A stretch of DNA of 64,000 bases from Cenococcum geophilum. Lineage: Eukaryota. The notes beneath the pieces are model-generated. The model was not told the DNA's origin, made no database searches, and saw nothing but the letters and a program-made list of their open reading frames with translations. Below, piece by piece: positions 1,481-43,450 of the stretch (position 1 is its first letter; each line of letters begins with the position of its first letter). The stretch lies in assembly GCA_050273025.1 (NCBI GenBank), contig CP158635.1, forward strand, positions 7,688,001 through 7,752,000, read 5' to 3'. The position numbers and the translations under genes are program-made.

Positions 1481-1509
1481 GTACGGGCGTCCCACCCTTA
1501 GCATTACCT

Positions 1510-3420: not shown

Positions 3421-3620
3421 TAATAGTAGGCTAGTAGCAGGGCAGCAGTAGGGTAGTAGTAGGGCAGTAGGGTAGTAGGGCAGTAGTAGGGCAGTAGTAG
3501 GGCAGTAGTAGGGCAGTAGTAGGGCAGTAGTAGGGCAGTAGTAGGGTAGTAGTAGGGTAGTAGTAGGGCAGTAGCAGGGCAGTAGTAGGGCAGTAGCAGG
3601 GTAGTAGCAGGGTAGTAATA
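3421..3620. repeat. 11-bp minisatellite (AGTAGTAGGGC) in Helitron 3' region
   Basis: tandem units visible; shorter array at 10221-10312 in the second copy. Confidence 0.9.
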
Positions 3621-3673
3621 GGACTTCGTCCTAAAAGGACTTCGTCCTAAAGGACAAAAGCCCGCCGTAGGCG

Positions 3674-3736
3674 CGAGAAATAAGTAAACTTTTCTAAGGA
3701 ACTGAAATTTTCCTTGGAAAATTTGCTTATTTCTCG
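3674..3736. other. 63-bp terminal palindrome of Helitron copy 1
   Basis: CGAGAAATAAGTAAACTTTTCTAAGGAA...TTCCTTGGAAAATTTGCTTATTTCTCG; preceded by small hairpin CGCC-GTA-GGCG. Confidence 0.9.
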
Positions 3737-4378
3737 TCTCTGTATATACTAAGTTAATTTTAAGTAACGTCTTTAATTGGTTTAGAAAAATCCTGGTCAC
3801 CTAATATTTCACATGCTACCCTATTAAATTCGCAACCCTTCTACACTTACGATGCACCCCCTAATATTGCCTAAATAAAATTTCTTTTAGTATAGATTTA
3901 TAGAGCTTATAAAGCGCTTTAAAATGGTATTACTTCTATCTAAATATCCTAAGGTTAGGTAATATTATACTAATATAAAGCTTCAGAGCTCTACAGAGAA
4001 AATTTTAAAGGGGGTACACGGAGCTCTGCATGGAGCTCTGCGAAAGCTCTATATAAAGCTCTATAAAAACTCTGCACAATATTCTATAAAAGCTCTATAT
4101 AAAGCTCTATATAAAGCTCTACTTAAAGCCTATCTAGAGCTCTAAAGCTCCTACCCTTACTACTTAAATACTACTCCCTACCTACCGCCTAAATGCCTTC
4201 TAATCGTATATTTTATAATAGCTATAATTAGTATCGCTTTTTTACTAACTTTATAATAAACCGTCTTAGAGCTCTGTATAAGACCTATAAATCTTACAAA
4301 GTTAATTCTTTATTTACTCTTCTAACCTACTACCTTTCTAACTCTATATATATAGGGGAAAAGGAATAGACGGTCTTA

Positions 4379-7300
4379 ATGACCTTTAGTAGACCTTCTA
4401 TAGCCTATAAACCAAACTACAGCCGCTACTACTTCCGCTACTACTTCCGCTACTACTTCCGCTACTACTTCCGCTACTACTTCCGCCGCTGCTTCTCCCC
4501 TTATACCACCTATATCAATCTAGCCGCGACTACCTATATTAATTTAGCCGCGACCTACTACAGTCCGCCCTATCGCGGAGCAGCTAGATTGTAGTCCTAC
4601 TACCGTCCGCTCTATTACGGAGCAGCTAGATCTTAGTCCTATAGACATTACCTATAACTTTTACGCGGCCCTACATTGGATTGATAAACGTGTTAGTATA
4701 TTACAGCCTAGCAATCCACAGTTTAAAGCCTACTATAAGCATAGTAATATAGACCTCCCTCTATTCTAGCCTTCGCTAAAATATCTACGCGACCTTTTAG
4801 AGTCCCGTAGTACTTCTGCTAGGTAGTTTAGGGAGCGGCTCCGCGGATATAATATAGTATTGGCTTTTACGTCCGTAAACTGTACTATTACTAACTATAG
4901 TATAGCCTAGGGCGGCCTAAATTGCTTCCAGATATATGGTAAGCTTTACTATCTATAGGGCCCGCTAGAGCCTCCTACTAATATTACTCCGCGGTATACC
5001 TAGCTATACTTTTACAACCCTAGTTATACTATAGATGTCCGGCTATAGGCCTGTCCTAATACCTAGCTAAATATAACTATTCTGTAGTGCCTTACTGCTA
5101 TGCTATCTAAGGTACGGAATCCTTTTATCGCCCTTTATTAAACCGCAAGAAAACGGCTTTAGGCTTAGCCCGTAATAGCCCTATTACAGATTATCTTAAA
5201 CCTATAGATGCGGCTTATCTTAGAGGCTAGTGCTAATTAGCGCCGCAAGAACCTCCTAATAAGTAATAAGGTGGCCGTTATTATACCAAATAAGTACAGT
5301 AATGCCAGCTTTCGCGATATTGTGCTTATAAAGCGTTATATACCTAATAAGTAGCCGCGTTACTGCTGTATTAACTTAACGTATACTATATATATGCCGC
5401 TCCACTATATACTGCTCTTCCCCCGTAGTAATACTAGCTGGCACTAGGGTCTCTAGCTACGCGACTCTAATTAAGCCCGCTAGCGAGACCGTTTAACGTA
5501 GCGGGCGTACTTTTAGTTCTACCTATACGTCTATAATAACTCTAAGTTAGTCCCTTTTGCCTACTGCCGGCTATTTTAGTAGTACGTTATAGATATATAG
5601 GCGCTATATAATTAGAATAAACTTAACTAGATCCGTTCCTACTAACCTAATCTCTATATAGAGCTATATAACGGTGTTACAGATACTCTTACCCACGCTA
5701 ATCTGGACCCTTAATTATTAGGCCGCTATATAGTCCTTCCATTAAGTTTCCTTAGCGGAGCTCACTTTATTAGGCAGTGCTATTAGAATTTAATAGCTAT
5801 TATCTATAAATATAGCCGTCCAAGCATATTTCTTACGTTTACTGCTAACTTTAGGTGGGACGAGATTACCCGCGAGCTACTACCTAGGTAGACCGCTATA
5901 GATAGGCCTAATCTAGTTGCGCACGTCTTCCGTATAAAAGTTACCCACTTCTTATACGACCTAAAACGGAAGTAGATCTTCAGCCGGTACCGCAGCTATA
6001 TTTAGACCATCAAGTACTAAAAATGGGGCCTGCCCTATTAGTACCTACTGCTTTTTTTACATCCGTATAACCGCGACAGGCTGCTAAACCTAGCCGTTAT
6101 CAACCGTTTTATATCCGCGGAGCTTCCGCAGCCGGAGGATAATCCCACTAGTTATCTTACTAAGATTATAAAGTTAATAATGGTTTACGGCCCTTGCGGC
6201 TCCTAGAATCCGTAAGCTCCCTATATAGTTTTGCTAAGGCTAGGCCTTCTGCTAACCTACTTAAAGCGGTACCCTAAGCCTTTTAACCCTATTACTATTG
6301 TGCATAAGGACGGCTATTTAGAATACCGCTGTTATAATAATGGGCGGATATAGTCTATCCGCTTACCGGGGCCTTTTAGAGCTACGTTTAAAATAAATAA
6401 CCGCTAGATTATTCCGTATAGCCTATATCTAACTATAAAGTACTATGCCTATATAAATGTTAAGATCTACGCCTCTATAAAGTCCGTTAAGTATATCTAT
6501 AAGTATATATATAAGGGGAATAACCGCACTACCTTATAACTTACGGACGGCGATAAGGTAAGCTAGTATTTATAGGGCCGTTATATTAGCCCCTCTAAGG
6601 CTATCTAGCGGATATTTAAGTTTCCTATTTATAAGGAGTCTCCCCCTATAATCTAGCTTACGGTGCACCCTCTAGGTAAGCAGCCCGTATACTTTTAGCT
6701 AAACTAATCCGTAGAGGAAATCTAATAGCGCCTTAAGCTCTCCTACTCTACGTTAACGGCCTTCTTTAAGTATAACGTGGAGTATAAGGATGGCCGTAAC
6801 CGCCTATATTAAGACTTTCTTAAGCGGTATATCTTTTATATAAAGTAATGGGAGTAGCGTCTACGCCAGCGAGGCCTTATAATAGGCCGTATATATTACT
6901 ACAGTCCCATTACAGGCGAGAGGTTCTACTTACAGCTACTACTAACCTCCGTTCCTAGCCCTACCTCCTTTAAAGACCTCCGTACTATTGCTAGTATAGT
7001 CTATTTAACCTTTTAGGCCGCCTATATGGCCCTAGGGCTACTAGAGGATAACTATAAGTGGATTAATTACTTTATAGAGGCCGCCGTTTTTGCTACTAGC
7101 GCCTAGCTACGCTCCTTATTTATAACCGCTTTAGTTTACGGCCCTATTACGGAGCCAGTTACTTTATAGGACCGCTTTAAACAGTTTATCTATAATAATC
7201 TACCTTACTTTCTAGCCTAGCAGCCTAATATTCCTATAGTTGGCGAGGATAACAACGCCTATTTTAATTATGGCCTATACCTTATCTATCAGATGCTTAC

Positions 7301-8813
7301 AAATTACTAAAAGACACTTACAGACTATAGTCTACCCTAGTTTTAGCACTAGTAGGCCGTTATTACTAAGGGAAATAACCTGCTTCTTATAGCGGAGCTA
7401 TAGCAATACAACCCTATAGAGGAAGGTCGCTAGTTTACTAAGCTACGCTAGCAGCTAAATACCAATCAGGCAGCGTGCTTTAATACTATTATTGCCGCTA
7501 TAGATACGGGTTTATAAACGGCCCATTTCTTCCTCTAGGGCCCTATAGGCACCGGTAAAACGTTTCTCTATTACTGCCTCTACTACTACTACCGCTCGCG
7601 CGGTAAAATTGTTCTTTGCGTAGCTTCTTCTGGTATTACGGCCCTTTTACTACCTGGCGGTTATACTACCCACTTTCGTTTTTAGATACCTCTTAATCTA
7701 TATAAAGAGTCTACTTGCAATATCTCTAAAAGCTTAAATCTGGCTAAGCTTTTACGCCATACCTCTCTGCTTATTTAGGATGAGGTACTAATATAGCACC
7801 GCTACTACTTTAAAGCCGTATACTATATACTTACGGACGTCCGTTCTAACGACTCTACCTTTAGCGGACTCCCTACTATCTTAGGTAGTAACTTTACTTA
7901 GATATTACCTATTGTCCCACAGGGGAACCATATAGCTATTATAGGTGCCTACCTATAGCGTTTATTCCTCTAGCCTACCTTTTATATACTATTCCTGCGG
8001 TTAAATATGCGTGTCTACTAGGGTAAGGCTAATTAATAGTTCGCAGCTTAGGTACGGAACTTATTTTATAATACGTCCCTATCTAGTAGCGTTACTATCT
8101 TACCTAGTATAGCCTAGTTACGGTCTAAGGAACCCTTCTATAAGTATATATACCCTCCGCAACTGCTTACGCGGGCATATACTACTCCTAATACCTTCCG
8201 CGATCGCGCTATCCTAACCGTCCGTAATAATACTGTCCTTACGCGGCTCTACGGCTCCCTAAGCACCTTTTATTCTATAGACTCTATAGAGTAAAATAGA
8301 GAAGATAATTATATAAAACTGCCGCCGGCGGAGCTCCTGCAGACATTTAACCTTAATAGCCTACCTCCGTTAAAGCTTTCCCTAAAGGTAGGCGCGCCCG
8401 TAATCCTTTTACGGAACCTCTACCCTAATAAAGGGCTCTATAACGGCACCTATATAGTTATTACGCGCGTAGGCCGCCGCTGTATTAAAACTGAGATACT
8501 TAGTGGCAGCTTTTATAACCAGCTACGGCTAATTTCTCGCATTAAGCTTACCTCTACGGAAGGAGAACTGCCGTTTATCGTCAGTAGAAGGCAGTTTCTA
8601 ATCTGGCTGTGCTTTGCTATAACCGTAAATAAGTTATAGGGCTAGTCTTTTAACTTTATTGGCGTTAATTTACGTATGCTAGTCTTTACGTATAGGCAGC
8701 TATATGTTGTACTATTAAGAGTAACGGATATAGCTAGGCTTTTGCTATTACTGCCGTAGGATGGGGATGCTATAACTACCAATATTATATATCTAGAGGT
8801 ATTGCTTTTATAA
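4379..8813 (+). pseudogene. Helitron Rep (HUH endonuclease)-PIF1 helicase
   Basis: de-RIPed motifs: CxxC zinc region MDITCDFCAALHW (~4640), RPSIFLTFTAN (~5815), IEYQKRGLPH (~6010), KYIxKYIYKG (~6490), Walker A QGPxGTGKT (~7535), IWDEVPM (~7773), C-terminal IYPEVLL; start uncertain. Confidence 0.93.
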
Positions 8814-9029
8814 TAAGGTATATTATTTTATTATATAACTACTTCTATAACTACCCTATAGGGCCAGTAAAACCTCTATAAGTGCCCCGTAGGGTCTAGT
8901 AAACACTCCCTTTTTCCTCCCTTTTCCCCCTCCTCTACCCCCCTCCTCTACCCCTCCCCTACTCCTCATTCTTACCTCCCTCCCACTCCTCAACTATATC
9001 CGCTAAATAGCGGAGCAGCCCTATAACCT

Positions 9030-10115
9030 ACTAGCGCCCTATAGGGCGAAAACGGGCGCGGGCAGGCGGGGCCTCCTCCTCTTTATTATTATCGTCGTCG
9101 TCATCATCGTCGTCATCGTCGTTATCGTTGTTGGCGGCGGCGGCGGTAGTAGCGGGAGGGACTAGGGCGCGGGAGGACGCGTAGGAGGATACGCGGCCGC
9201 GGCGGACCGGTAGGGTAGCGGTAGTAGCTGCGGCGGGGGCAGACGCTATTATCTCTATTAGTTATGCTTTTTACTATTATATTACTAACTTATAGGCCTA
9301 AAAGGAGCAGCGCGCCCCTTCGCTACTATAATAGCAGTTAGCATAGCTGCCGTGTAGCTGGCCCGCGACTAACACACACTTTATAAATAGGCTACCGCCC
9401 TATACGTACGACGTATAAGCCTACGGGGCTACCGTACCCCGGCTTTACGCTAGGGCTGCCTTTATATTTAGGGCCCTGGCCTTAAGGCGGATCCCCTAGT
9501 AGACCCTAGAAGCTCTACCTAGGCTAGAAGCCCACTATAAAGATACACCCCAAACGCGCGGTAGGGAACGTAGCGCCCGCATTATAGCTATATTGGCGGT
9601 GGCGGCTTCGGCAGCAGTAGTAAGCGCGGTAGGTAAGGGATTCTAGGGTAGGCGGGCGGCAGGCTGCGGGAGGGCGGTAGGCTGATTAATGGCCGTAAAG
9701 CTAGCCAGGGGAGGAGTGGCGGCAGTAGCGGCGGCGGCAGCGGTAGTGGCGGGAGCGGGGAGGAGCCAGGCGGCTGCCGCAGCTACAGTACCTATTTACA
9801 TATTAGTATCTTCTCAAATTCTTAAATTCTTTTATAGTACTAATACTTACTAGTATACTTATCTGCTGGGACCGAAGTCCTACGCGTAGGCACCCTAGCC
9901 TAAGACGGCGGCGGCGCGGACGGTAGTACGGAGAGGCGGCGGCCGGGCGCGGATATAGCGGCGGCAGCGGCGGTAGTAGTAATGGTGGTGGTGGTGGTAG
10001 TGGTAGTAGCGGTAGTAGTAGTAGCAGTAGGAGTAGGAGCAGAAGAAGCAGCAGTAGCAGCGGCAGTGGTAATGGTAATAGTGATAGTGCTGTTGCTTAA
10101 GGAAGAAGATAACGA
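9030..10115 (-). pseudogene. Helitron cargo gene with DUF3716-like Cys-rich domain, spliced
   Basis: 9301-9462 de-RIPs to EAALAQSRGTVAPQACTSCVQGGGPFVECVLVAGQLHGSCANCHYGSEGARCSF; GTAAGT...CTAA...TAG intron at ~9791-9850; low-complexity Thr/Ala/Pro N-terminus; ends approximate. Confidence 0.72.
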
Positions 10116-10382
10116 CGACAACAATAATATAAATAGCTATTATTAATATACGTTACGTAATTAATTATATAAATCTATATCACGCGATTATCATATAAAG
10201 GCAGCCTTACGTCACCACTATAATAGTAGGGCAATAGTAGGGCAGTAGTAGGGCAGTAGCAGGGCAGTAGTAGGGCAGTAGTAGGGCAGTAGTAGGGTAG
10301 TAGTAGGGCAGCTACTTAGTTCCTAAAAGGACTTCGTCCTAAAAAGGACTTCGTCCCAAAGGACAAAAGCCCGCCGCAGGCG

Positions 10383-10445
10383 CGAGAAATAAGTAAACTT
10401 TTCTAAGGAACTGAAATTTTCCTTAGAAAATTTGCTTATTTCTCG
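10383..10445. other. 63-bp terminal palindrome of Helitron copy 2
   Basis: same as 3674-3736; preceded by CGCC-GCA-GGCG hairpin. Confidence 0.9.
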
Positions 10446-10829
10446 TAACTATATACTTAGGTTTTTACCTAATAATGCCCCCCCCTTTAAAAAGGGTTGT
10501 CTTCAATCCCCTATATACTTAGGCCTTAATAAAACCCTATAAAAACCTTAATAAGGAAAAAATTGGAAGGGAAAGAGCGTCCTAATTTTGCGCATAGAGA
10601 GATAGGTAGTACACTTACGCGAAGATGTTAAGGAACTTCAACCGCCGGTCAAAGTTGTCTAATTAGTTAGATTTGGCTTACTAAAACTTCCCTATATTTC
10701 ACTAAGCTAATAGCGATTTTATATACCCGGTATGGAAAATCCTAATTAGTTTATTTAATAGGTAAAGCTAGTAGCTTAATACTGTCACCCAAATTTAGTA
10801 GACACGAAATATTCCAAAAGCTTACTTAT

Positions 10830-25046: not shown

Positions 25047-26407
25047 TTTATAGGGGGGTTTCCTAGTTTTTTCAGTAGATAATAACCTCCTTAGGTCTCT
25101 TATCTCCTAGTCCTAAAGGTAAAAAACTAAGCAAAAAGCCTTGCTAGTTTTTACTATCCTTTTTTACCTTTTCTTCTTACTAATCCTACTAGAGGATTTC
25201 TAGGGAGACTAAGTTAGAAGGTAGTAGAAAAACTAGCTAAAAAAGACTAGCGTGGTTATTTTCTTTTCTCTTTAGAAGTAGAAAAAACTACTAAAAAAAG
25301 GACTTATTAGGCTTTTGCTAGCAGAAAAGCCCTAAAGGCAATCCTCCTCTTACTAAGGAAAGTCTGACTGAAAGAGATATAGAAAAGTACCTACACCCCC
25401 TATTTTATTAGGCTTTTACTTTCTATAGAAGAAAAACCTAAGAAAAGTCTATATTTTGTAGTTTTGGTATTAGTAGTAGTAGTATGTAAGAGGCCAGCCT
25501 AACCAGAACGTATAATTATCTAATTAACAGTGTTACTAGTAAGTAGAAGGTAAGTCAAAGGTAAGTCAAAGGTAAGTTAAAGGTAGAATAAGTTTTACAT
25601 ATTAAAGGACAAATGCTTCTAACCACTTCTATTTAGAGACTAATCGCTAATTCTTCTCTAGAGGGGAACCAGCTTCCTATATATTTCTTTTAAGACGCTA
25701 GTAAAACCTTTCGCCCCTAACCTATTTAACTGTGTCTTCTAGAATATAGATAGGATATAGATAAAACCTCCTACCGTCTTATTGGATATATACCTCTTAG
25801 GGGATTCCGTTATAATTGCCTTCCCTTTTAGGGTCTTGGTTCTCTAAGACTTCGCCTCTACTAAGCTTTTATAGAGTTCCGGCTAAAACCACTAGGGAAA
25901 CCCTTAGTGGAAAGGTACTCTATAATGCAACTTATTGCCAGCTCTTTACTAGCGCGGAACTTTACTTTATCTTTTGTTCCTCTACTCTTCTCCTACCCTA
26001 GCTCCTTATAGTGTTTTCGTAATAGGATTTTAATAATAGTAATAAAAATTTGGTGGGATTCACCTCTTTAATTTTAGGAATTTGTTATAAATAGATCTAG
26101 AGGTTATCCGGTGCGACGCGTTAACTAACCACTATTCCCATTCACCTAAATAGGCCTTAATAATAACGTCTTTTATTTTAATTTCTTTCTGTTTATAAGT
26201 TATTATCTTTCCCTTGTCCTTCCATTAATAATACTATTTATCTCATTCTTAAATAGGCTGTTTTCATTATATCTTGCCTTTTAGCTTCTATATTTCTAGC
26301 CGTACTTCTATTACTACCTTATTATCTTTTCTTAACGCGTTTATAAGTAATAGGATCCCTACCTTATCTCTTATAACGATGCTAACTTCTTAAAGTATTC
26401 TTTTATA

Positions 26408-27225
26408 ATAGCTTATGGTCCTTCTACGCGTCCCTAGACCGGCGGCAGTGTCGTTAATCTCCCGGTAACGCCCCAGACAGCGTCTATTACTCCTGCGGCA
26501 GTTTCCCTAAAATGCTATTGTCACTACGTTTATACTCTTATATAGGATCCTTCCTACGTCTATAAGATGCCTCGCTCTAGCAAAAATAAATCTAAGTGCT
26601 CCTATTATCGCAGTAGGAGAAAGACCTACGTTCTGGTATTTCCCATTCCGTTCTATTCTAGATTTCGCTAATTATACTAAATCCCTACTGTCTATATATA
26701 TAAGACTTGTAGGCTCTAACGCGCTATCTAAGATTTTTACTAATATCCTAATAGTAACAGGCAGGGATAGAAGGTGTCTTCCCTTACTTATAGACTCTTT
26801 AATTCTATAAGGGTTTCTACTACTATAAAGACGTAACGTTCTTAGATATATAGTGTCTAAAAGCGCATATATAAACAGCTCGTTCTTATTAATGATAACA
26901 TTCATACTCTTACGCGGGCTATTCTGGCTAGGTAAGTTTCTCTAGTGACTTACTTAGGAACTGTGCTAATTCCTTTAGCTAATATCTTTTTAATCCCTGC
27001 TTAGACGCCGATTTGGAACCTAGGGATACTAAGGATAGTAACAAAGGTTAAGATAAACGTTCTCCTCGCTAGTCTCCCGCCTATGCTAGTCCTTCTGGTA
27101 CCCGTTATTCCAAAAAGAATATTAGTGGAAGTGCTAATACTTCTAGGGATAGAGGAGCTAATAATACCATTAATAATAACGTTAAGATGGAAGAGGAGGC
27201 TCCTATTACTACTACTAGTGTTTAA
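26408..27225 (+). pseudogene. Antisense three-exon accessory gene with a six-Cys cluster inside the Gypsy
   Basis: exons ~26408-26635, 26681-26931, 26979-27225 stay in frame after de-RIP; intron 2 GTAAGT...GCTAAT...TAG; CxxC-x11-C-x10-CxxC-x6-C. Confidence 0.65.
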
Positions 27226-27699
27226 GTTATTACCTAGCTCTTTTCTTCTTTTTATAGAATAGCTTTATATAGTGCCTCTCAGGTGCCTCTAGGATACCCT
27301 ATTATTAGGAATTAACTTTATACTTTAGGGATGCCTTTATTCTAAGCTTTAGTGACAATCTATATAAACCCAGTGCACTACTATAATCCCCATATATAAT
27401 AAACGGGTGGTATTCCTATAGGTGCCTTATAATTCCTTAAAATTTCTAATTCTTTATAGGCTGTTTTTTTACTCCTTTTTATACCATTAACTCTACTGCG
27501 TATCTCTAGTGCCAGGCCAAATACTCTCCTTTTATCCCTAGGGGATCTTTCTAAATCCCTAAGGCTACTTCTTATAGTGCTACTACTCCTTTTTGGACAG
27601 CGTCTTCTTTAAATAGTATCCCTAGTGGTTCTCCTATGGATCCCTATAGGCTTCCTCTTATAGGATTTTAGGATCCCTGTTATAATAGCGAAACGTTTC

Positions 27700-30600
27700 C
27701 GTTCTTAATGCCTATACTTAATCCTATAGTTTTAATTTACGGGGTCTTCCCTATTACTTTACCTGTGGTATATCCGGAACCATTTTTAAGTCTTTACCTT
27801 TAGTTCTTAGGAAGGTTTTAATTATGGTATTATATCCTAGCTAAAGGTACTCCTTAGGTTCCCAACTGTTATATGCCTAGGAGTATCCTTCCTAATAACC
27901 TAAAAATTCGCGCTTCTTCTAGCGCCATCTTTGGTCTAAAATATCTTCTATATTCTATTCTAGTTCCCTATTAATTTCGCTAGGTAGGGGCGGTTCCGCA
28001 CCATTTCTTCTCTTATATAGCTCTAGTAAGGAAATATAAAATATGGGATATATTAGATAAGATTTTAGTAATTCCAATTTATAGGCTTAGTTTCCTTTAG
28101 TTTTCTTAACTATCTTAAAGGGTCCGAGCTACTGGTGATCTAGCTTCTTCTTAATGCGTTTTATTTAGATATTTTTTATAAATAGTAAGACTTCGTCTCC
28201 TATCTCGAATTCTTTTAGCATATGTTTTTTGTTATAGTATCTTTTTTATATAGCCTAGGCGTTTAGCAAGTACTTTTTAAGTTCCTCTCTACGAATTCTT
28301 ATTTGCTTAATTCTTTTAAATACTACTAGTGCCTTTCTTTTAGGAACAATATCCTTAATGTTTTAGGGGTTATTTACTTTTACCCCAAATAATGCTTTAT
28401 AAGGGGTTATTTTTGTGCTGCTATAGATGCTTATGTTATACACATGCTACATTAGAGCTAACCACAATATCCAATTATCCTGTTAATAATTAATATAGTA
28501 GCGGAGGTAGTGTTCTAACAACACATTTAGACGCTTTGTTTGCCTATTTGTTTACGGGTAAAAGGCAGTGCTTATCCTTCGCCGTATTTTTAATAAGAGA
28601 CAGAATAAAGACCAGAATATACTATTAAATACGGTACCTCTATTAGATATAATTCCCCTTAGCGTACTAAACAAGAGCCACTGTTCTAAAAATAGGTCTA
28701 TCAGTTTTGCTACTGTGATTATTGTTATAACAGCAAAGTATCCTAAAAACTTTGTATACCTATTGATGATTACTAAAATAGCGTTAGCAACCTCTCCAGT
28801 TCTTATCTTAGTAGGGGGTAAACCTATAATAAAATCCATTGTTAATTCTGACATGGGTCCCTACGGAATAGGAAGCACTAATAACTCGCCGTATAGGCGA
28901 TGCCTGGATATCTATATCCTTTAGCACATATTACACCTTAATATATAGTCCTTAACCTCTTTAGACATTTTATCCCAAAAGTATTTCCTTTAAACGGCCT
29001 TAAGGGTTCTATTGGCACCATAGTAACCCCTAAAAGGGTTGTTATAGAAGACCTTTAGAATTTCGTCCCAAATCGCTTAGTCCTTTAGAATATATGCAGC
29101 ACCCTTAAAGCGCAATAGACCCTTTTGGTCTTGCTACTATAGCTTCTTAGTAACTCCAGCTAAGTTAGTCTCTACTATATCTTTCCACCTCTCCCTAGAG
29201 GCGAAGGCGTCCCTTTATTAAGCTTAAAGAAGAAAATCCGGAAAGGTTTTATACAGATTACTTACTTCTATTTCGCCTGCCGCTATTATAGACTTAAGGC
29301 GTGGTACAAGACGTTTTAAACTATTAGTGCCAGTAGATTCTCCTGCTATTATATAGTATACCATGCTGCAAATAGGCATTTTACCTATCCCCCTTAGATC
29401 TAAAAACTCGCAGCTAATATACCGTTAAGTTAAAGGTGCCGTAATACCTCTAGCATATCCTATAGAATTCTCGCTAATTCTAGGATACGCTAACTTTATA
29501 ACGTCTACTTAGTCTATAACCTAGTCTATAACTATATCCTACGGCTCTATAATTGTGTCGCTTTGCAGCTGCATTACTAGGACCTCTACCCTACCGCAAA
29601 ATTCTATAGTTCTAAGGAAAGAGTCTTCTTTCTTCCTAAGCAAATTTTGTAATATGGGGATTATTTCCCCTATGCTATCCTAGATCCTCCCTATCTTATA
29701 ATCCGGACGTCTTAATAACCTATCGGCAGGATTTGTCTTCCCTAGGCGGTACATAATTTTAAAGTTGTACTGTAATAGTGCCTCTACCTATCTTACTTAT
29801 TAACCGCTTAATACCTTTATAGTTATAAAGTATTTTAGGTTATTATAGTCTATAAGGACTTTAATAGGATAATTGCTTCCTATATTATAATGTCGCTAGT
29901 GCTTTATTACTGCGATTATCGCGAGCAGCTCCTAGTTGTGTATTATATAATACTGCTTTATAGGGGTTATTTTCCTTAACCAAAACGCCACAGGATGCTA
30001 TTTTCCGTCTTTTAATTAAGATATAATTGCCCCTAGGGTAAAGCCGGATGCATCCGTTTTAAGATATATATATAGCTCCCAGCAGAAGTATATTAGGATA
30101 GGCGCCAATATAAATAAATCCTTTAACCGGTCTATAGCCTACTTAGTAGCTTCCCTAAATATAAAGGGTCCTAACTTCTTGCCATTCTTAGATCCTTTTA
30201 GTAGATTAGTAATTAGAAGTATTACTTATAAGTAGTAAATAATAAACGTTTAGTAGAAGTTCGCCGTGCCTAGGAAAACCTATACTTCTCTAAATGTCGT
30301 AGGGTAGGGCTATTCCCTAATAGCGTCCACCCGACTTTTCTCTATTAATACTCCGTTAACGCTAATAATAAAGCCCAAAAAATTAATACTAGTAGCATAG
30401 AACGTGTACTTTTTTAGGTTTATATAGAGCTTATATTCCCGCAGTCTTTCTAGTATTATTTATACGTGGTACGTATACGCTTTATAGTTATTAGAGTAAA
30501 CTATAATATTATTAAGGTAGACTATATATATTATATCTAACAGGCCTAATAATGCCTTATTAATATAGGCCTAAAATATCGCTAGTGCGTTGGTAAGCCT

Positions 30601-31650
30601 AAATAGCATCACTAGGTACTTAAAGTGGCCGTACCATATTTAAAACGCCGTTTTCCACTTATTGCCGGCTTTAATCCGGATTTAATAGTATACATCTTTT
30701 AGATCTAATTTTATAAATATCTTCGCGCCTAATAGCCTATTAATAAGCTCCCCTATTAAGGGTAACGGGTAGCAATTCTTTATAGTAATCTTATTTAGCG
30801 CCTAATAGTCGACACAGAGGTAAAGGGTCCTATCCTTCTTGGGTATAAATATAATCGGTGCCCCTGCCGGGCTTATAGAGGGCCAAATCCATTCTCTCTA
30901 AAAATTATCTACTATATATTAATATAGTACCGCTAGCTTATTTTCTAATAGGTTATATAGTGGTCTAAAAGGAGGTTATTTATTCCCTATATCTATCTCG
31001 TGCTTAACCAATATAGGGTTAGGTAAGGTTTATGCAGCCTCTTTACTAGAAATATCCTCTAAGTTTGTATATTTCTATGGAATCTCTAGTTTCTTAACTG
31101 CGTATAGCCAGATATCTGAAAATAAATATCCCGTGTCCCCGTTCTTGGTATTAAGAGTAGTATATATAGCATATACCCACCCTTCTTCTTATATATAGTT
31201 TAAGAAAGTCTTTTAATCTTCAACTATAATGCGCGGTTAAGACTTCCAATGTTAATACAAGGCCAAAGGCTAATTAATGTCCGGATTAACTTAGTAAAGC
31301 TATAGGTATCCTAAAATAAGGTTATACCCCTTAATTTCTACGGCATAGAAGCGCATCTCCTATATATCCCATAGACCACCGCAGTCCTAGCTGGCCATAG
31401 AAAAAGCCTATTCCCCATAGTATGGAATCTAGTGGCCTCTAATACTTTAAATAGTGCGTACCTATAAGCCGCTAAGGTCCAAATCTAATTCTTTTACTAG
31501 TAATTAAGAAATAAACCCTATACTTGCGCCACTATCTATAAGGCAGTCTCGCGTTACCTATTTATTATTAACTTAAATAGAGACAGGAATAACCATACGG
31601 CAGTTTACTCCCTCCTTCTCTTACTAGCCTAGTATAAGGGAGTAAAGATC
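27700..31650 (-). pseudogene. pol: Gypsy pol (protease, RT, RNase H, integrase, chromodomain)
   Basis: LIDSGASIGFIS (~31520); [13 protein letters not shown] (~30750); MLFRLTNALAIF; TDASGFTLGA (~30050); MDFIIGLP and INRYTK (ORF 28552-28854); chromodomain VEDILDQR...WEGY...SWEP (~27850-27960). Confidence 0.95.
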
Positions 31651-32800
31651 CACTAGGCTATCTCTTTTCCCGATTAGGCCAACTCTTACTTCTTCTACTA
31701 GTAAAAGCGGCTTATATGGCCCTTCTTACCGTAGTTATAATAGGTGCGTGTCTCCTAGTTCCCCTCCTACAGATTAGGTCTCTGCCTATTATTATTTTAG
31801 GGTTAACTAGCGTTACTCTAGGGCTGCGAGGCCTACTCGCGTTGTCCTTCTATAGAGCGGTTAGGTCGGAATCTGCCCCTATTATTAAAGCTAGGTCTAG
31901 TCCTACGCTCTTTATTATTAGCGTCTCGTTCCTTTTACTTACCTAAATAGTCTCTTTTAGCGCTCTTGATCCAAATAGCTTTAGAGATAAGCTTTTCTTA
32001 AGAGGTAGGAATTTTGCCCTTCTCTTATATAGCCTATTAAATCTTAGGTTATAGCTTAGCGAGTAGCTGGTGAAGTTATATAGCGTCATCCCATAGATCC
32101 GAGTAGGGTATATTATCTTCTAGTTCTTCTAAGTAGTTTACAAACTGGACTATAGTCTAACCATCCCGCTATTTGGCGTCGTAGTATCGCTAGTTATAGT
32201 CCATCCCTTAATTAGTAGGGTCTTAGACCTAATTAACTAACTAGGTCCTAAGTTCGCTAAATTTAAGGGGTGTAGTAAGTTTCTTCTTGTAGTATATCTA
32301 TAAACTCTTAATAGTGCTATATAGGAAGGTAGAAGCAATTAGTGTCTAATTATACTCGTTAGAGTAACGTTTCGGATCTAGCCAAAACTTAGTTTTATAT
32401 TATTGGATAAAACGATTATAGTTCCGAAGACTATTACTATAGTACTTATTAGGTTCCTTTATACGGAACCTAGGTTTTTCTAACGTTATAGCATAGTATA
32501 GCGTTACCCCTTTAAGTCCGCTTCGTATCTAGGGTGTCTATACTTCCCCTAATTATCCTTATAATTGTTCTTAGTAGTCTTAATATGCTTATCTTAATTA
32601 TATCTTTAACTCCTTTGTTTTTTGTAAGGTCTCGTATAGCGACCGCTCTAATGACTCCCTAGCGGTAATTATTCCTAAGGGTCTCGCAAGGTTAGACGGA
32701 CTAGCCGTGGCTTCTTTATAGGAAGAGGGAATGCGCTCCTCTGGAAAGACTCTTTAAGCCTCTTATAGTAAGGGCGTTGCTTTATGGGGTATAGGAGTAT
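31650..32800 (-). pseudogene. gag: Gypsy gag
   Basis: position between 5' LTR and protease; degenerate CCHC knuckle near 31700-31750. Confidence 0.7.
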
Positions 32801-35800
32801 AGTTTATTATTGTTAATTAATAGCCGTACGTTCCTAACGGATTATAAGTAATTAGAATTGTAAGAGGCTAGCTTAACCGGAATGTATAATTATCTAATTA
32901 ACAGTATTACTGGTAAGTAGAAGGTAAGTTAAAGGTAAGTCGAAGGTAAGTTAAAGGTAGAATAAGTTTTACGTATTAAAGGACAAATGCTTCTAACTAC
33001 TTCTATTTAGAGACTAATTACTAGTTCTTCTCTAGAGGGAAACCAGCTTCCTATATGTTTCTTCTAAGACGCTAGTAAAACCTTTCGCCCCTAACGTGTC
33101 TAACTGTGTCTTCTGGAACATAGATGGGACATAGATGAAACCTCCTACCGTCTTATCGGATATGTACCCCTCGGGGGATTCCGTTACATAGTAGTAGTTT
33201 TAGTGTTCTTATCCGTGCTTTACTTATACGCTAGGACCCCTTTTACTAAGGCCTCTATCGCAGAATAAAGGGGGTAATAAGGGGAATAAGTCTAACTCTA
33301 GCTCGCTAGGTAGGCAGAATTAGGTCTTAGGAGTTAGGAAAACGATAGTTTTTGATGGTAAGATGGGTATGCGTAAGTTTGGAAGTGCGGCGCCACCTTT
33401 TAGTAAGGTTGCATGTGCGGTAAAGGTTTACTTCTTTACTCTCTTTCCTAGCTATAATTAATATTATAAGTAAACAGATGTTCTCTAGAACCTTTTAAGG
33501 CGATAAGGTGCTTATAATCTATAATAATTTAAAGATTTATTTAGCTGCTTTTAAAAAACAAAGTTAAGGTTATAATAGTAGGGGTTAGTATATTTAACCA
33601 GATAAATAGGGATATAAGCTTTATATTATAGCCAATTATCTCTAATAAATTCGCTAACGGTTTGGATAGAAACTAAAAATACCTTAATCTTCTAACGCGC
33701 GCGCGTATTATTTTTATATCTAAGACCCTATAACTACTAATAAATAGAGCAATTTGTGGGTAGAAATATCCAATTGCCTACTTAGCATATTTAAGATAAG
33801 TTATATCCTTATAAGATAGTAAATTAGTTAAGCTAATAGGCCTAGGAGTTTACTATTTAATAATTAATAACTAAAAATTAAACCATATTCTCTCTAATGT
33901 ATTATTTATCTATACTACTAATACGGAGTAGGTAGTGCCCGTAAATCCTATATACCTTAGTGCTTATCTTTAAGTACATATTAAGATAAAGCGTACCACA
34001 ACTGCTCTACTTCTCTATCATCGATTTAGATAAGGATTATACGCTTTTATTACTAGGATCTTATTAGAGTTAATAGGTATAATTATAGATAAGCTAATAT
34101 AAATTCCTAAGGCAATAGAATTTCAATAGTAGAACCATAAGTTAATATATTAGGAAGAGCAATATACTAAACTAACATATGCTATTAACGCAGTCAAAGT
34201 AGCTACAATTTATTAAAAAGCCTTTATTGGCTAATTAGAAACTCGTATAGTTTAAATAGATAGGGACTTGTTTTTACACTAGGAGATAAAAAGAAATTAG
34301 AATAAACGCTTGCTAATAATTCTCTTATCCAAATTTCTAAAACTTCGCAAGACTAAATTTAACCTGCTTATACTAAACGCTTTCGATTTTATCTTATTCG
34401 CTAGCTAGTATTTAAAGACGCTTTCTAATATATACCTTGGCCAAATTATTTTAGAGAATCCATATTAAGATCCTAGTATATCAGTAGAACTAGGTTAAAT
34501 ACTACGAAATTATCAATGGTGCTAAGGTTATTTAATACCTTATTACGTAGTAATAACTTTACTACCCTATCCACTACCTTATTTTGCCTACTACTGTCCT
34601 AGTTAATAACTACACTTAGAGAGAAATTTGTCACTACTATGGGTTAATAATGCTTCTTTAAAGTTAAAGGGCTTAGTACTAACCTGTAAGAGTGGAGTAT
34701 ATAAAAGTTACTTTCTAGCGCCGTGTCGGGAGTAGTGTATTAACGATTAAATTAACTATTTAAGCCATAACACGCTAACAATAAGGCTGGCCTATAGGTA
34801 AATTTAATAAGTTTAAATTAAGCAGAGGGGATAAATAAGCACTTAGATTAGCTAAATTAACTAAATATATACAGGCCGCTATAAAACGTATAAACCATAC
34901 TAGCTTCTTAATTTCCTTCTTTAACTAATACGCTTAGATAAAAAGTAAATCCCCGTATTCTCTTGCTACTATCTTTCTTAGTATATCTTTAAGCATCGTT
35001 ACTAGGTTTGTATTTATGAATATCTTTTAGATTCCTTAGTAGACCTTTTCTATAAATATATTAATCTAAGCCTTATTACCTTCTAAGATATCTAGGTATA
35101 ACTATATCTCTAGAACCCCGACAGCCCTTTCTTAGATCCTCTATGCCCGCTTCTAAAACACTAATAGAGAATAATTTCCCCCAAATATTTAGTTTTTTTT
35201 TTATAACAGTGTCCTAATCGTATTCGTTGTTGTGAGTTTGCTAATATATAAACTAACTTTCGTTATTTAAACGTCTGCGCTTTCTCAGTTTCGAGAAGGA
35301 GTAGGCATTAGCATTAGTATAGGGTTTAGGTGCCCTAGCACTTAGGTTTAACAGATAAGATTACTAGCATTTGCTTTGCGTACTAATGCTTAAGAAACCC
35401 TGCGTAGAATATAGCTCCGGCTATAAACTATCCCTAAAATATCGCTTGTAGAAACTCTTAATAGGCTTAGGCTGCCCCTAAGGTAGCCTAACTATTATAT
35501 AATAACACAATTCTAAAAGCGGAGAACTTGTAAGATTGCAGCTGTGTGAAAAATCCTAACTATAGTAAAAGTTCCTAAGTAAGTAACTATGGGCAGCTTC
35601 GTAGACTTACTCTCTTATAATAGTTAAGTCTGTATATTGGCAATAGATAATGTAGTTATAATATAAACTTAGGAATTTCTGCCTAGGGAAATGTGGTAGT
35701 TTAAATAGCGCGGCCACTATTTTAATAGTAACGTAATGCTAGCTAAAAGCAATTTGTAAAGGATCCGACCGAACACCTTCGTTAAGAGGCAATATTTGTC

Positions 35801-36129
35801 ACGAAGCTCGTATTAAGCTGTTTATTGATAAAATGGGTTGATTGATTGATGGTGTCTTGATTTGACCTTGGACCTAGGGCCCTCGGGCTAAGATAAAGAG
35901 GTTTACAATGCACGTGACTCGTGCACGGTCTACGCCTTTAGAGAATACAGGTTATCTAACACACCCCCTTAGCTTTAAGCTCTTTAAGGTTAAAGCTAAC
36001 TACCTTTCTACCAAATTCTGCCAACTAATTAGGATTTTCTATGCCCGGCATGGAAAATCGCTATTAGCTCGCTTACGGCTAGCGCCTTAGTGACCCTTCT
36101 TGTGCTTGTTAATACGTTAATTAAACCGT

Positions 36130-39100
36130 AATCTTATCTAAATCCTTTTGTCTTGCTCTAATACTATCCCTGAGGTCCTCTAGTTGCTTCTCCTTATTTA
36201 GCCACTCCTTAATATCCACTATTCCGATTATATTAACGAAGCTTTAAAACCTCTGCTTGGGTAGGGCCTTTATAAGTCCATTGGCGATTATCTCCTTTAT
36301 CACTGTCCATTAAAATTATACTTGTCTTATTGCGTATTCCTAACGTAGCTAGTGTTAATGGATGTTAACGTATTAGAGCTTTGTAATTAGCTTTACCGTG
36401 TCTTCTATAATTAGTTAAAGTGTCTAGGTGTTGTTGTATTTAATAATTAAGGACTTATTTAGGCGTAGCGTTATTGCTTTAAATAGCCTACTAATAAAGA
36501 TAGCTTCCTTTGCTGTCTGTAATAGGGCTAATAACTCGGCTTCTGTGCTTGACGTTATAACTATACCCTGCTTATTTACTCTCTAGGCAATTGGCCCCCT
36601 AAATAGCTTTATAATGTATCCTTATAAGCTCTTTCTGTTAACGGAATTGTCCGCGAATAATGCGTCGCTGGTATAGATAAATAATTGCGCACCGTCTCTT
36701 CCGTTGTCTCGTCCTTTGTCGCGTATTCCTTTATCTTTCCCTCTACCATTCGTTCCTTCCTTATCTCCTCTATAGCAGATTGCTCTGCTTCTTGTGCTAT
36801 ACAGGTACTAGATAACTCTTTCTGCCGCTTAATAATGCTCTTGGCTTAGGTTCTAATTGAACCTTACTAGCTGTAATACTGCGAAGGCAATATCCGGACG
36901 CGTTGTAGTGGCTGTATAGAGTATTAAACCCAATTTTCTTTGATATAGTATTGTAGAGGCTGGTAGGGATATAGGACGGACTAATAGGTCTGTATTGGGG
37001 GACGGAGGCGTTAGACGGATTATATGGTGATCGGTAGGGAGGAGTTCTGATTCTGCCATAGGAGTGTCTGGAAGACGCCCTCTGAGATCTATCTTATACT
37101 AATTAGCTATCTTCTCTATATAGGCTTCCTGGGATAGCCATAGGAGCCTCTGGCTATAATTGCGTAGTATATAGATTCCTAGGAACCATTTTAGCTTGCT
37201 AAGGGTACTTATCTAGTATTCCTTGCTCAGCTCCTTAATTGCTTTTTAAGCTTTTTTCTTATCTGTCTTTTAGTAGCAGAAGACAATATTATTAACGTAG
37301 AAGAAGACGACTATTTTACCTTTTAGCATAACACACGGCTTTTAAGGTACCTCTTTAAAACCCAATTCGTTTAATAAGCTTGTGAGATTCTTCTGCTATA
37401 ATAGTGGTGATCGTTGTAGTCCGTATAGGGCTTTTCTTAAGCGCAGTACTTTGTCTGTTTTTCCTTTATTGAACCCTAGCGGTGGCTTTATGTAGATAAT
37501 CTTGTTAAGATTGTAATGGATAAACGCATTAACTGTATCTATCTGTGTCATCTCCAGGTTGAATTTTGCGGTGATCGCTATAAGGGTTTGGAAGGTTATA
37601 CTAGCTAATGTAGTAGCTCTTATAGGTAGGTCTCCTGGGGCCTGTTGATTTCCGCAAACTACTAAGCGTGCCTTATATTTCTGGAGAAATTTGTGCTTAT
37701 TTGTCTTGTAGACGAACACCTATATTAAGCTAAGGACCTGCTGTCCCTTTATATGCTTCTTATCTGTTTCTTAAAACAACCTTATTTAATAATGAGATTA
37801 GAGATAAGCTCGCTGAGCTTTTTGGAACTAATCTTAAAAAGGATGCGTATTAAGGTCGCGGATTGACTAAGGTGGCGGAGGTAAGTTCTTCCTATATAAT
37901 CTAATATTACGTATTCTGCCTGATTTTAGCTTGCTATTGTTAAGTTGACTATTAAGGTTAAACTTTCTTCCTGCTAAGAAGGCGCCGTGATAGGCTAAAG
38001 TGATCCTTTTGGTAATAAAGTTTTTGAACCTATAATCGCCGGCTTCCTTAAATGAGTCTTTAACTAAGTTATTAAGTACCCCCTGAGTGTTAAATGCATC
38101 TCCTGCTTGATAAGCGATGTCTTGATTAGTATTTTGTATATCTAACTTTATAGGATACTTAACGTAAAAGGCATATGGAGATTCTTTGTCTTCTTCCGTT
38201 GGAGGTGGCGTATAATATGCATCTTTAAGAGCTCTTGCAAGCTTAAAATCTACTAACTTATTAAAGGCTTGAACTGGCTTATTAACATTATTATCTTTCT
38301 CTTAAATTAACGGTTTAAATACTTCTTTATTATCTTCTAGAAGAACCTTATTCTTAGTTAGGCTATTAGGAAGTTAAATTTTCTTAATTAGCGTTTCTAA
38401 TTCGGCGTGTAGATCCTTTAAGATGTCCGTTTGCTTACCGTTAAAGAACGTCTTTTTGTTAAAGATGACGTCCCTAGTAGAGATGACGATACCTTTATAG
38501 GGGATCCAGATCCTGTAGATATTGGTAGAGTTATAGCCAACGAGGTAGCTGATATGGGCTCGCGGATCTAGCTTGCTTAGCCTTTTCTTCTTTAGCTGGG
38601 CGTCCGACGTTATTGCGTACGCTCTATAGCCGTAGGCTTTTAGGTACGCTAGTTGCGGTTTTCTTAATCTTCTATTCGCTAGGTAGGTATGAAACCTCTT
38701 ATATAGCGATTTCCATCTATTGCTTTCTCGTGGCGTTCGATCTTAAAGGTATACTATATAGTTCACTATCTCGTTCCATAGATTATGTGGTAGATTGGCA
38801 GTAATTCTTATGGCACGTCCTTTCTTAATAATAATACCCCCTAAGCGTTTGGCGGTACCGTTTTATGCTTGCGTATATGGCGCTAAAGGCTTAAATGTAA
38901 TCCCTTGCGTCCGTAGCCATTTAAGGGTTCTTCTTCTCCCTAGCTCGTTGTCTAATCTAATAGTGTTAACTTTAAGGTTATACCTCAGACGAATCTATTA
39001 GGTGAAATCTTTAAGCACTTATAGTGTCTCCTTCTTCTTGCTATACGTTGTTATAAAATACAAGAAGGTTCTTCCTAAGAAGGTATTATGGATGAATATA

Positions 39101-40998
39101 ACTCGTATAAATCCAGTATACGCTTCCTTAAGGTTAGTCTAGTTAATATAGAGGTTAAGATAGGGTTTATTAATTTTCTGTTCTAAGAACCTTCGTAAGA
39201 CCTAATGCTTAATTTTAGCGAGACTGTAGTGTTAATATTCCGTCGTCTTTGGGCCTTGAAGCTTAACTCCTAGGGCGTTAAGACCTAGATAATAAAGGCT
39301 TATAGGTCCTGGATAACCTAGACGCAGATATTATAGACGTGCATCTCCTTTTAAGTCTGGATGTGCGTCTCTTAACGATATCCGCTTCCGTTGACGGCGC
39401 GTTAGACGGCTAATATTGAATGCGGATTTTAAGTTTCCTAATTGGACGTATTTGATAGTCTATTATCTATGACGTTCTTCCATTTAATATAGGATTGTGT
39501 TATCCTTTTAAACGATAAGATTGTTGTCTCCTTTATTATTCTAGTAGTATCCTCGTTTTTAAAGTAGACGGAACAACACTAGATTTGTATTAAAGTCCGT
39601 ATAAAAGGCAACGTCCTTAAGACGTAGAATTCCTTTACTCTTGTTTAGTTTTGTGACTTAAATAGTAACGTCGCCGTAGCCTAGTATAGGCACTTGTGAG
39701 CTGCCGGCGATAACATATTTATGTCTTAAAGCTTTCTTAAAATTATAAAAATGAGAGAGGTTATTAAAGATATAAAGAGTGGTTCCTAAGTTAAGAATAG
39801 TTAATAGCTTTAATAGATGGAGTTAATTGGTGTAATATAATTCTAGGAATATTACATTAGCTTCTCCCTTAATCTTAACTTCCTGGCTCTTGTCCTATTA
39901 TTATTAAGCCTCGTCTTCTTATTCTTTAAGTTTAATCTTTATAACTTAGTTAGCGAGGTCCTTATTCTTTTCTACCTTCTTTAGTGCCTTTTTAATGCGA
40001 GCATCTCCTATTATAACTCCTATAGGTCTCTTATCTTTAAATAAACACTAATAGTCCTTAAGGGAGTGTCCTTATATTCCGCACGCTAAGTACTTAGGCG
40101 TTGGCTTCTTATAGGACGTCTCCTTATTTACTAATGTCCCGGCTCTCTTTAAGCGTCTATTGCGTGCTAAGGCTCCTCTTTATAAACCTTTAGTAGTATT
40201 AGAGTAATCCTTAATAGCTTACTCTATAAAGTCTGCATTAAAGGTACTCCCCTTTATAGTAGCATTGGCTTTCTTTAAGGGTCTTATGAGTCCTTCTTGT
40301 AGCTCCTTTACTACTCTGCGGTATTTGGAAGATCTCGACTTTTAAGGGTTATTTGACTTGGTAGTGTACTTCACATAGTAGGCGTTGCTGAAAGGTTAAA
40401 TAACGTCTACTAAATCTTAAAGCCAGATTCCTTCTGATATTTAAGGGATCTTATACTTCTCTCCTAGTACTATTATATGTTCCCATTAATCTAGCTATTG
40501 GTTTAATTTTAATAACTATTTAAACCCCTTAAGGGCTTCTATATACTAGTATTATACCTTCTTCCTAACAAACGACGAGGTAGGTTCTATATTCTCCTTT
40601 AACTAAGATAGCCATTCTTTGACGGTTAAAGAAGGGTTAAGTAGTAGCTTCTTCTAAATTAATACTGTGGACGTGATCTAGGTGCGTATCTATTGCAAAT
40701 ACTCTTCTTATTTTAGGAAGTACTTTATATCTTGGTTATAGTATCGTCTACTATTCTCGTACGCTCTCTATTAATTCGTCGAGAGCTGTATATATAAGGT
40801 TGCATTCTCATTAAAGTCTGTGACCTTTAGAAGAGGTGGTTTTTCAAATAGACCTTCTTAAGGTGCTTCTATGGCTGGGTCAATGTAGGCCCAAATTTGC
40901 TAATCTATAAGGGCTTGTAGTTGCCAGATCTATTACTCCCAGTCTTCTAGCTTATTAAGGATAATCATAGTTAACAAACTTAACGTTAGTGGAGTCAT
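36130..40998 (-). pseudogene. Copia gag-pol
   Basis: YKARLVVCGNQQ, RLRKALYGLQRSP, TRPDIAFAV (RT); LDPRAHISYLVGYNSTNIYRIW (integrase C-terminus); RIP stops. Confidence 0.95.
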
Positions 40999-41034
40999 TT
41001 AACTGATAGGTAAAGGAGGAATTAAGATGGTATT

Positions 41035-41310
41035 TTGTCGTTAGGATCGTCCTTATTATTAGGATCGTCCTTATTGTCAGGATCGTCCTGTGACGATTGA
41101 GATGGAATCTCGTGGAATCTCGTGGAATCTCGTGTTAGGATCGTCCTTTGACGATAAGGTCGAATCTCTCATTAGGATCGTCCTGTGACGATGAGGTTGA
41201 ATCTCGTAGAATCTCATGGAATCTTGTCCTGTGATAATTGAGGTAGGATTTCTATCAGAGTCTGCGTCTTGACGATGAGGTGTTAGAGTCTGACGATGAG
41301 GTAGAATTTC
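41035..41310. repeat. Short tandem repeats in the Copia 5' UTR
   Basis: AGGATCGTCC about 5 times, GGAATCTCGT about 4 times. Confidence 0.8.
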
Positions 41311-41595
41311 TTTAAATGATTGAATAATAGCTAAATAGCTTCTTGTCTCGGCGGACCGGGCTCATAACTGTCACGAAGCTCGTATTGAGCTGTTCATTGA
41401 TGAAATGGGTTGATTGATTGATGGTGTCTTGATTTGACCTTGGACCTAGGGCCCTCGGGCTAAGATAAAGAGGTTTACAATGCACGTGACTCGTGCACGG
41501 TCTACGCCTCTAGAGAATACAGGTTATCTGACAATATTACTACTACGTAACTTGGTTGATATATATTAAGTTAGGTTTATTTACTTTAAAAGCTA

Positions 41596-42799: not shown

Positions 42800-43450
42800 G
42801 CTCTTTTATTAGACTAATAACGTTCCTAATAATAATGGACAAATAGCTTTGTATAAGGCTATATAAGCAAGCCATATTTAAGCTATTAGAGTACTGTTAG
42901 ATTTAAGTATAAATATTAAGGCTTAAGATAATAATAGACGGATAGCTCTATATAAGCTGGCATAAATAGAACTGGCTAAAGTTATATTTACTAGAGGTTA
43001 AGTATTATATAAAATCGCTTGTTTAAAGGATATAATTGGCTATAGACTAGAATATAAAAGAGAAAGATAATAAAAGCAATTATAAAGGGAGTTTACTAAA
43101 GCACTAGAAGCGCTTCTAAGTTAGGGCGCTAATATTAACGCCTAAGACAAGAATGGACAATCCCCTTTATACAAACTAGCATAAGTAGGGTCGGTTTAGG
43201 CCATTAGGAAGCTTCTAGAGAATAGTGCTAACGTTAAATCTTAAGACAATAATAGATAGACGGCTTTGTACGAGCTGGCACAAATAGGACTATTTAGAAT
43301 TATATTTATTAGAGATTAAGTATTATATAAAATCACGTATTTAGAGGATATAATTAGCTACAAACTAGAACGTAAAAGAGAAAAATTATAAAAGCAATTA
43401 TAAAGGGAGTTTACTAAAGCACTAGAAGCGCTTTTAAGTTAGGGCATTCT
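42800..43450 (+). pseudogene. Ankyrin-repeat gene remnant with an internal 318-bp duplication
   Basis: de-RIPed NGQTALH...AIRVLLDLGANIEAQDNNGRTALHEL and GANINAQDKNGQSPL; GTTTACTAAAGCACTAGAAGCGC at 43091 and 43409. Confidence 0.75.

Follow-up and report, generated by a model that had tools for sequence, protein, structure and literature searches.

A candidate antisense gene between pol and the 3' LTR of a RIP-mutated chromovirus family

The chromovirus and its family

The window analyzed in this study, a stretch of 64,000 nucleotides, consists of AT-rich fungal DNA with strong RIP-type signatures. A Ty3/Gypsy chromovirus of approximately 7.7 kb, whole and RIP-type-mutated, is located on the minus strand at 25485-33188 (Table 1). 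Its two LTRs have a length of 330 nt each and, read in the sense of the element, their ends are TG..CA. The 5-bp target-site duplication TAGTA was identified at 33189-33193 and 25480-25484, and a polypurine tract adjoins the left repeat, which is the 3' LTR. Within the pol frame, Pfam matches were obtained for RVT_1 (E-value 5.7e-20), RT_RNaseH (9.5e-18), Integrase_H2C2 (2.3e-10) and SH3_Tf2-1 (3.7e-10), together with a weak match for Chromo (E-value 0.074), which is below the cut-off. The order of the domains in Pfam, i.e., RT, RNase H, integrase and a C-terminal chromodomain, is as expected for a Ty3/Gypsy chromovirus. The pol frame shows 35-48% identity to fungal chromoviral polyproteins. 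A total of 599 proteins match pol at an E-value of at most 1e-20, and PF00385 is present in all of the best 120 listed among them.

The repeats and the pol domains on the minus strand identify the element as a minus-strand chromovirus, and therefore the plus strand of 26408-27225 is antisense to it. In a first-pass annotation, which was made from the sequence of the window, a spliced gene with a cysteine cluster had been placed on this strand, between the chromodomain and the 3' LTR. This placement holds, with the chromodomain at approximately 27844-27951 on one side of the segment and the 3' LTR on the other.

Table 1. Coordinates of the chromovirus and of the antisense gene model in the window.
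Feature	Position	Strand	Description
5' LTR	32859..33188	-	TG..CA ends, approximately 90% identity with the 3' LTR, TAGTA flank
3' LTR	25485..25814	-	repeat pair, TAGTA flank
pol frame (protease, RT, RNase H, integrase, chromodomain), RIP-mutated	27841..31809	-	Pfam matches
region between pol and 3' LTR	25815..27840	.	approximately 2 kb, no Pfam family in any of six frames
exon 1	26408..26635	+	start, Pro/Ser/Thr-rich N-terminus, seven-Cys cluster with basic patch
intron 1 of the first-pass annotation (uncertain)	26636..26731	+	96 nt, 4 in-frame stops in consensus
exon 2	26732..26931	+	predicted helical segment; 200 nt long in 33 of 39 alignment rows
intron 2	26932..26978	+	47 nt, GTRAGT, CTAAC 12 nt before TAG
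exon 3	26979..27225	+	Ser/Asp/Glu-rich tail; stop TAA at 27223-27225

The RIP indices of the element are 1.62 for TpA/ApT and 0.51 for (CpA+TpG)/(ApC+GpT). Among the copies of the family alignment (window 25750-27950), the mutation spectrum was 0.69 for CpA, 0.46 for CpG, 0.17 for CpC and 0.17 for CpT. The high CpG share goes beyond what classic RIP, with its pure CpA bias, would give, and may point to another dialect of RIP or to the deamination of methylated CpG.

The antisense segment belongs to an abundant element family. The family alignment comprises 39 rows, namely the window and 38 loci, all of which originate from one metagenome. In all of these 38 loci the segment is present and is colinear with the window from the integrase to the LTR, with a DNA identity of 73-91%. 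In two DNA runs, 8911 and 9050 contigs that are 80-100% alike were found on 25469-28900, covering all 30 bins of this range. The contig depth over 26408-27225 resembles the depth over integrase and pol. Members of the family without the segment, a possibility raised in the first-pass annotation, were not encountered among the 38 loci. An unrelated element nested in the chromovirus was also considered as the origin of the segment. This origin was dismissed, since all copies carry the segment in colinear order.

Single copies carry private insertions in the accessory region. These have a length of 199 nt in exon 1 (L025), 265 nt in exon 2 (L037), 208 nt near window position 26084 (L033) and 142 nt near 27724 (L032), and they may be small nested elements.

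Viral contigs were searched with the pol alignment, and 5 loci were found. Among two that were inspected, only L039, an intact-looking element on a contig of 7117 nt, is a close chromovirus. It contains gag at 1209-2462 and pol at 2822-6190, followed by approximately 0.7 kb in which no antisense ORF of at least 50 aa was detected. It can be concluded from L039 that not all chromoviruses carry such a gene. Another viral contig, L042, holds an env-bearing element of another kind and was set aside.

Reading frame, introns and possible signs of coding constraint

The window copy of the gene is dead, since its start is lost and the three-exon frame is interrupted by 10 internal stops. The ATA at its beginning had been regarded as a mutated start codon, which agrees with the family, in which 19 of 34 copies begin with ATG and the other 15 with ATA. 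ATG was also read by contigs of one DNA run. It is located exactly where the open frame begins, with A at -3 and G at +4. The terminal TAA is kept in all 38 copies. The internal stops are without exception TAA or TAG, as described before for this copy. Where each of them stands, the 39-row de-RIP consensus has a sense codon, and C>T or G>A changes alone lead from that codon to the stop. These two types account for 114 of the 116 differences between the window copy and the consensus. A TAA at 27049-27051 in exon 3 is present in every copy of the main subfamily; the CAA of the pooled consensus at this position arises because two subfamilies are mixed in it.

The comparison secures only half of the three-exon structure. 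Start, stop, strand, coordinates and intron 2 of the first-pass model stand, while intron 1 as drawn there is not confirmed. Intron 2 is canonical and secure. GT is found in 36 of 37 copies, CTAAC or CTAAT in 36 of 38 and AG in 36 of 38, and the intron joins the open frame of exon 2 exactly to that of exon 3, so that the frame is corrected. Motifs of this quality occur at 0.13 per kb and strand in the window.

The donor of intron 1, GTATTT, is shared by 36 of 37 copies and is non-consensus. Its branch site reads CTAAC in 24 of 37 copies and has the form CTAAT in 4. An acceptor TAG followed by G was found in 6 of the 37 copies with bases at this position, all of which belong to one divergent side subfamily. 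The remaining 31, including the window, have A at 26731, mostly in the form TAAG. The TAA had been taken for a mutation of this copy; with A in 31 of 37 copies it is not private to it. With TAAG, as in the main subfamily, the AG is displaced by one nucleotide and the frame is lost. Many other introns that keep the frame can be drawn, e.g., from 26636 to 26770 with CTAAT 19 nt upstream. Exon 2 contains no Met and an in-frame stop lies upstream of it, hence some intron is needed if exon 2 is coding.

The exons show possible signs of past coding constraint, as judged from the comparison of the copies. In the pooled de-RIP consensus, there are no stops in the 223 codons of the model (76 in exon 1, 66 in exon 2 and 81 in exon 3), compared with 15 in 786 codons of the true pol frame and 3.5-7.6% in non-coding frames. 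De-RIP removes TpA and thereby opens all frames, and across the two strands of this consensus there are five overlapping open frames with lengths of 99-178 codons. Insertions and deletions are informative as well. Those shared by at least two copies have lengths of -12, -6 and +3 nt in the exons, i.e., all three are multiples of three. The 12-nt and 6-nt deletions are located in exon 1 and the 3-nt insertion in exon 3. In the flanks, none of the 6 shared indels is a multiple of three, all of them being 1 nt long (Fisher's exact test against the exons, 0.012).

Shared transversions were classified as synonymous or non-synonymous. In the model frame, 12 of 26 were synonymous, with 5.4 expected (P = 0.003), in a test that is poorly calibrated, as a value of P = 0.007 was also obtained for one of the frames in a control flank. 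For comparison, 11 of 19 shared transversions in pol were synonymous. The model frame was the best of six frames in exon 1 (5 of 11 synonymous) and in exon 2 (4 of 7). The control frame at P = 0.007 covers 25818-26407 on the minus strand (codon starts with remainder 1) and has 11 of 34 synonymous transversions with 5.1 expected; it contains 15 stops in 198 consensus codons. Either this is a coincidence, which calls for caution with the test, or the frame retains a trace of an unrecognised feature.

Considering these observations, it has to be asked whether there is a gene at all. The region of 2 kb could be non-coding, and the gene would then be an artefact of reversing RIP, of choosing frames and splice sites post hoc and of reading Tyr as Cys. 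The overlapping open frames on both strands fit this explanation, and so do the many alternative introns and the control flank in the synonymy test. The density of shared transversions points in the same direction, because with 33-48 per kb the exons equal the flanks (31-57 per kb) and are at 4-5 times the value of pol (8.1 per kb). The bias of exon transversions between codon positions is not significant (8/6/12, p = 0.34). A codon-usage score that was trained on pol follows strand composition, does not discriminate between frames and does not favour those of the model. Finally, the searches for homologues, families, folds and transcripts were all empty. For transcripts, 24 reads matched among approximately 9.3 million records (about 12% of one run), most of them in the LTR and none of them spliced, with copies that are heavily mutated; no RNA run was listed among those that contain the family. 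However, an artefact of this kind leaves several features unaccounted for. The ATG, with A at -3 and G at +4, coincides exactly with the start of the open frame, and a canonical intron of 47 nt is located exactly at the frame change. Indels are in frame in the exons and out of frame in the flanks. In exons 1 and 2, no frame other than that of the model shows the excess of synonymous changes, and mixtures of Cys and Tyr occur at regular C-x2-C spacings. We therefore regard the absence of a gene as unlikely, at a chance of perhaps one in a few.

A further explanation is that the protein is encoded on the minus strand, which is that of the element itself. In this case, an unspliced third sense ORF would follow pol at 27264-26731, and the open frames of the plus strand would only mirror it. 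With 178 codons this is the longest open frame of the consensus, and it needs no intron and is continuous across the site of intron 2. It has 7 of 17 synonymous shared transversions (P = 0.047) and is better than the model frame in exon 3, where it is the best frame with 4 of 8. Nevertheless, its first Met occurs only at approximately residue 122, and the translation consists of about 30% Ser and Arg and has almost no Asp. Exon 1 with the Cys cluster and two of the three in-frame indels lies outside of this ORF, and in neither exon 1 nor exon 2 is it the best frame. The ATG, the intron signals and the terminal TAA would remain without explanation. A sense ORF is thus extremely unlikely to be the origin of the observed pattern.

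The predicted protein and known antisense genes

The Cys cluster in exon 1 is real in the family consensus. Its spacing is C-C-x2-C-x11-C-x11-C-x2-C-x6-C, or, written as residues, C-C-R-R-C, x11, C, x11, C-S-H-C, x6, C. It differs in detail from the pattern derived before from the window copy, since the consensus has x11, CRRC and CSHC where that pattern had x10, CRHC and CSYC. TGY is kept at the seven Cys positions, in this order, in 23 of 35, 5 of 35, 13 of 35, 2 of 36, 17 of 37, 18 of 37 and 9 of 37 copies. Support for the middle Cys is weak and comes from two unrelated copies. At the Cys positions the copies are mixtures of Cys and Tyr, as predicted for a change of TGY to TAY, and two Arg codons are mixtures of Arg, Cys, His and Tyr. 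The second half of the cluster, C-x2-C-R-x-R-R-K-x-C, is strongly basic.

The other parts of the protein agree with the earlier description. For exon 2, a helical segment was predicted by AlphaFold2 from a shallow alignment, with helices at residues 12-33 and 37-65 and a mean pLDDT of 79.6. Exon 3 encodes an acidic tail rich in Asp, Glu and Ser. The AlphaFold2 model of exon 1 was unusable (pLDDT 50.5).

The cluster had been compared to fungal Zn(II)2Cys6 proteins. The motif of this class is given as CysX2CysX6CysX5-16CysX2CysX6-8Cys in the available part of its description (PMC2447501). The resemblance does not extend to the spacing of the consensus, because x11 stands in the first loop where the motif has x6, and the half that is basic comes second. 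Like the Gal4 type (PF00172), the predicted protein contains at least six Cys in two C-x2-C...C halves, and a helical segment and an acidic tail follow. Only the second half, with its x6 spacing, resembles one half of a zinc cluster. Zn_clus (PF00172) was not matched in Pfam by any of 32 copies, each of which lacks several Cys, or in the six frames. A plain zinc ribbon with four Cys (C-x2-C, x23, C-x2-C) fits the spacing equally well. A further candidate is DUF3716 (PF12511), which we take to be a fungal cysteine-rich domain with six Cys and long loops, close to the arrangement C-x2-C, ~x11, C, ~x11, C-x2-C, x6, C found here. In the 32 mutated copies, PF12511 was not matched at E-values up to 10.

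Searches for related proteins gave the following results. No relevant Pfam match was obtained in the six frames or in the 32 mutated copies, where only chance matches (E-value of at least 0.065) occurred. The profile search against the PDB yielded 0 matches, the protein atlas search no usable match and a word-based protein search with exon 1 no candidate. An exon 1 profile, which is blurred by mutation, was compared with 1.84 billion representatives and found no homologue outside the family. It matched 3 short ORFs from other copies of the family, and 2 further matches were judged spurious, as they lie inside long, highly repetitive proteins. With the exon 2 profile, the search of longer proteins returned one unspliced ORF, again from another copy of the family. 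The negative results on homology and fold are weak, because every natural copy queried has lost several cysteines.

These searches bear on the question whether a real gene might be a mere passenger. A host gene could have been captured with its introns in antisense orientation by one ancestor of the family and have no role for the element. Its orientation would keep the introns, and the gene evolves fast. Transduction is discussed as an origin of such ORFs in the portion of PMC11963269 that was available. Still, none of the 38 loci and neither of the two subfamilies lacks the segment, and no cellular paralogue was detected among the 1.84 billion representatives with the mutation-blurred profile. 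Furthermore, the possible signs of constraint date from the spread of the family. A passenger is for these reasons considered quite improbable.

Genes of this kind are already known, and the family described here is a further case. One example, brtn of the element Boty, was reportedly published in Virology in 2011 (417:248, by Zhao et al.). In the accessible passages of three articles that cite it (PMC8365987, PMC7264820, PMC4227169), brtn is an additional gene of this grey-mould element that lies in antisense orientation between its pol and 3' LTR. It was the only fungal case found in our literature searches. As far as these passages describe it, Boty shares with the present family the fungal chromovirus host, the slot that separates the 3' LTR from pol, the orientation antisense to gag-pol and the carriage by a whole family. 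The comparison is restricted to this layout; the exon 1 profile matched nothing outside the family of the window. In plants, additional ORFs that lie antisense between pol and 3' LTR are known from Grande, RIRE2 and Retand, where a TRP28 domain occurs (excerpts of PMC7264820 and PMC11963269). They have the same slot and orientation and are present in most copies, and according to these excerpts DNA binding and a regulatory role were suggested for the plant proteins. In contrast to the family analyzed here, they belong mostly to non-chromovirus lineages, and their regions are much longer (2.9-6.6 kb). A TRP28 domain (PF04195) was not detected by Pfam in the six frames and in the 32 mutated copies.

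In summary of the family data, the presence in all copies, the in-frame indels, the synonymous excess and intron 2 support a family-wide antisense protein-coding gene, as far as a comparison of sequences can. Our preferred explanation, with a probability of roughly 0.6, is an antisense accessory gene between pol and the 3' LTR that is carried by the family and was killed by RIP in the window copy. Before mutation, its product would have been a small protein of approximately 200-225 residues. It would begin with a Pro/Ser/Thr-rich part, followed by the seven-Cys module, the helical segment and the acidic Ser-rich tail. The module is probably zinc-binding. The antisense orientation of the gene would keep its intron or introns from being spliced out of the genomic RNA of the element, and they would be copied at each transposition. 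By analogy with brtn, the antisense extra ORFs of plants and HBZ, a promoter in or adjoining the 3' LTR would drive the gene. From its architecture and from the same kind of analogy, the protein may have acted in the nucleus, binding nucleic acids and regulating how the element itself is transcribed or silenced.

HBZ is a spliced antisense gene at the 3' end of a retroelement, and its small product is a nuclear factor in which basic, helical and acidic parts are combined. It is the antisense gene of the retrovirus HTLV-1 (consulted part of PMC11963269). The antisense position at the 3' end, the splicing and the sequence of basic, helical and acidic parts are similar in the chromovirus family, by analogy only, whereas HBZ is a bZIP protein and stems from a vertebrate retrovirus. 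It is conceivable, although we hold it for doubtful, that a fungal chromovirus lineage encodes its own spliced antisense protein resembling a transcription factor and thus a fungal counterpart of HBZ. Such a protein would combine a zinc-cluster-type module with an expanded first loop, possibly DUF3716, with a pairing helix and an acidic tail, and it would bind the LTR or the silencing machinery of the host. If this were true, an orphan domain would receive a function, and it would become easier to approach the question how these elements grew to thousands of copies.

The extra genes of LTR retrotransposons are poorly understood. With a dead copy in the window and a kind of gene that is already known, the finding is solid and unsurprising. 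Nevertheless, a second, unrelated-looking family with the same layout, a Cys module and an intron that is kept only in antisense orientation suggests that such genes are a regular part of the biology of fungal chromoviruses. It also provides a concrete protein that can be tested for DNA binding and for control of element activity. Moreover, a gene destroyed by RIP can be recovered by the comparison of copies.

Other repeats in the window

A second LTR retrotransposon, of the Ty1/Copia type, is located on the minus strand at 35792-41533 and is RIP-mutated as well. Its LTRs have a length of 170 nt and are 96% identical, and Pfam identified RVT_2, a retroviral SH3-like domain and Pol_BBD. Between 53760 and 55540, direct and inverted repeats that are 60-69% alike form a dense array, whose units also match 3973-4350. 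Two local tandem duplications were found at 42815-43445 and 56435-56881. One of them consists of 313 nt present twice with 77% identity; in the other the repeats are approximately 217 nt apart with 98% identity.

Further repeat pairs are located within 1-10500, namely 395-591 with 3026-3222 (98%), 22-461 with 9669-10092 (77%) and 3222-3767 with 10025-10472 (71%). Translations of this part contain stretches that are similar to a Walker-A/PIF1 helicase and to a Copia RT, which suggests a putative mutated Helitron and a Copia remnant. A GC-rich island (0.57) is present at 9001-10000.
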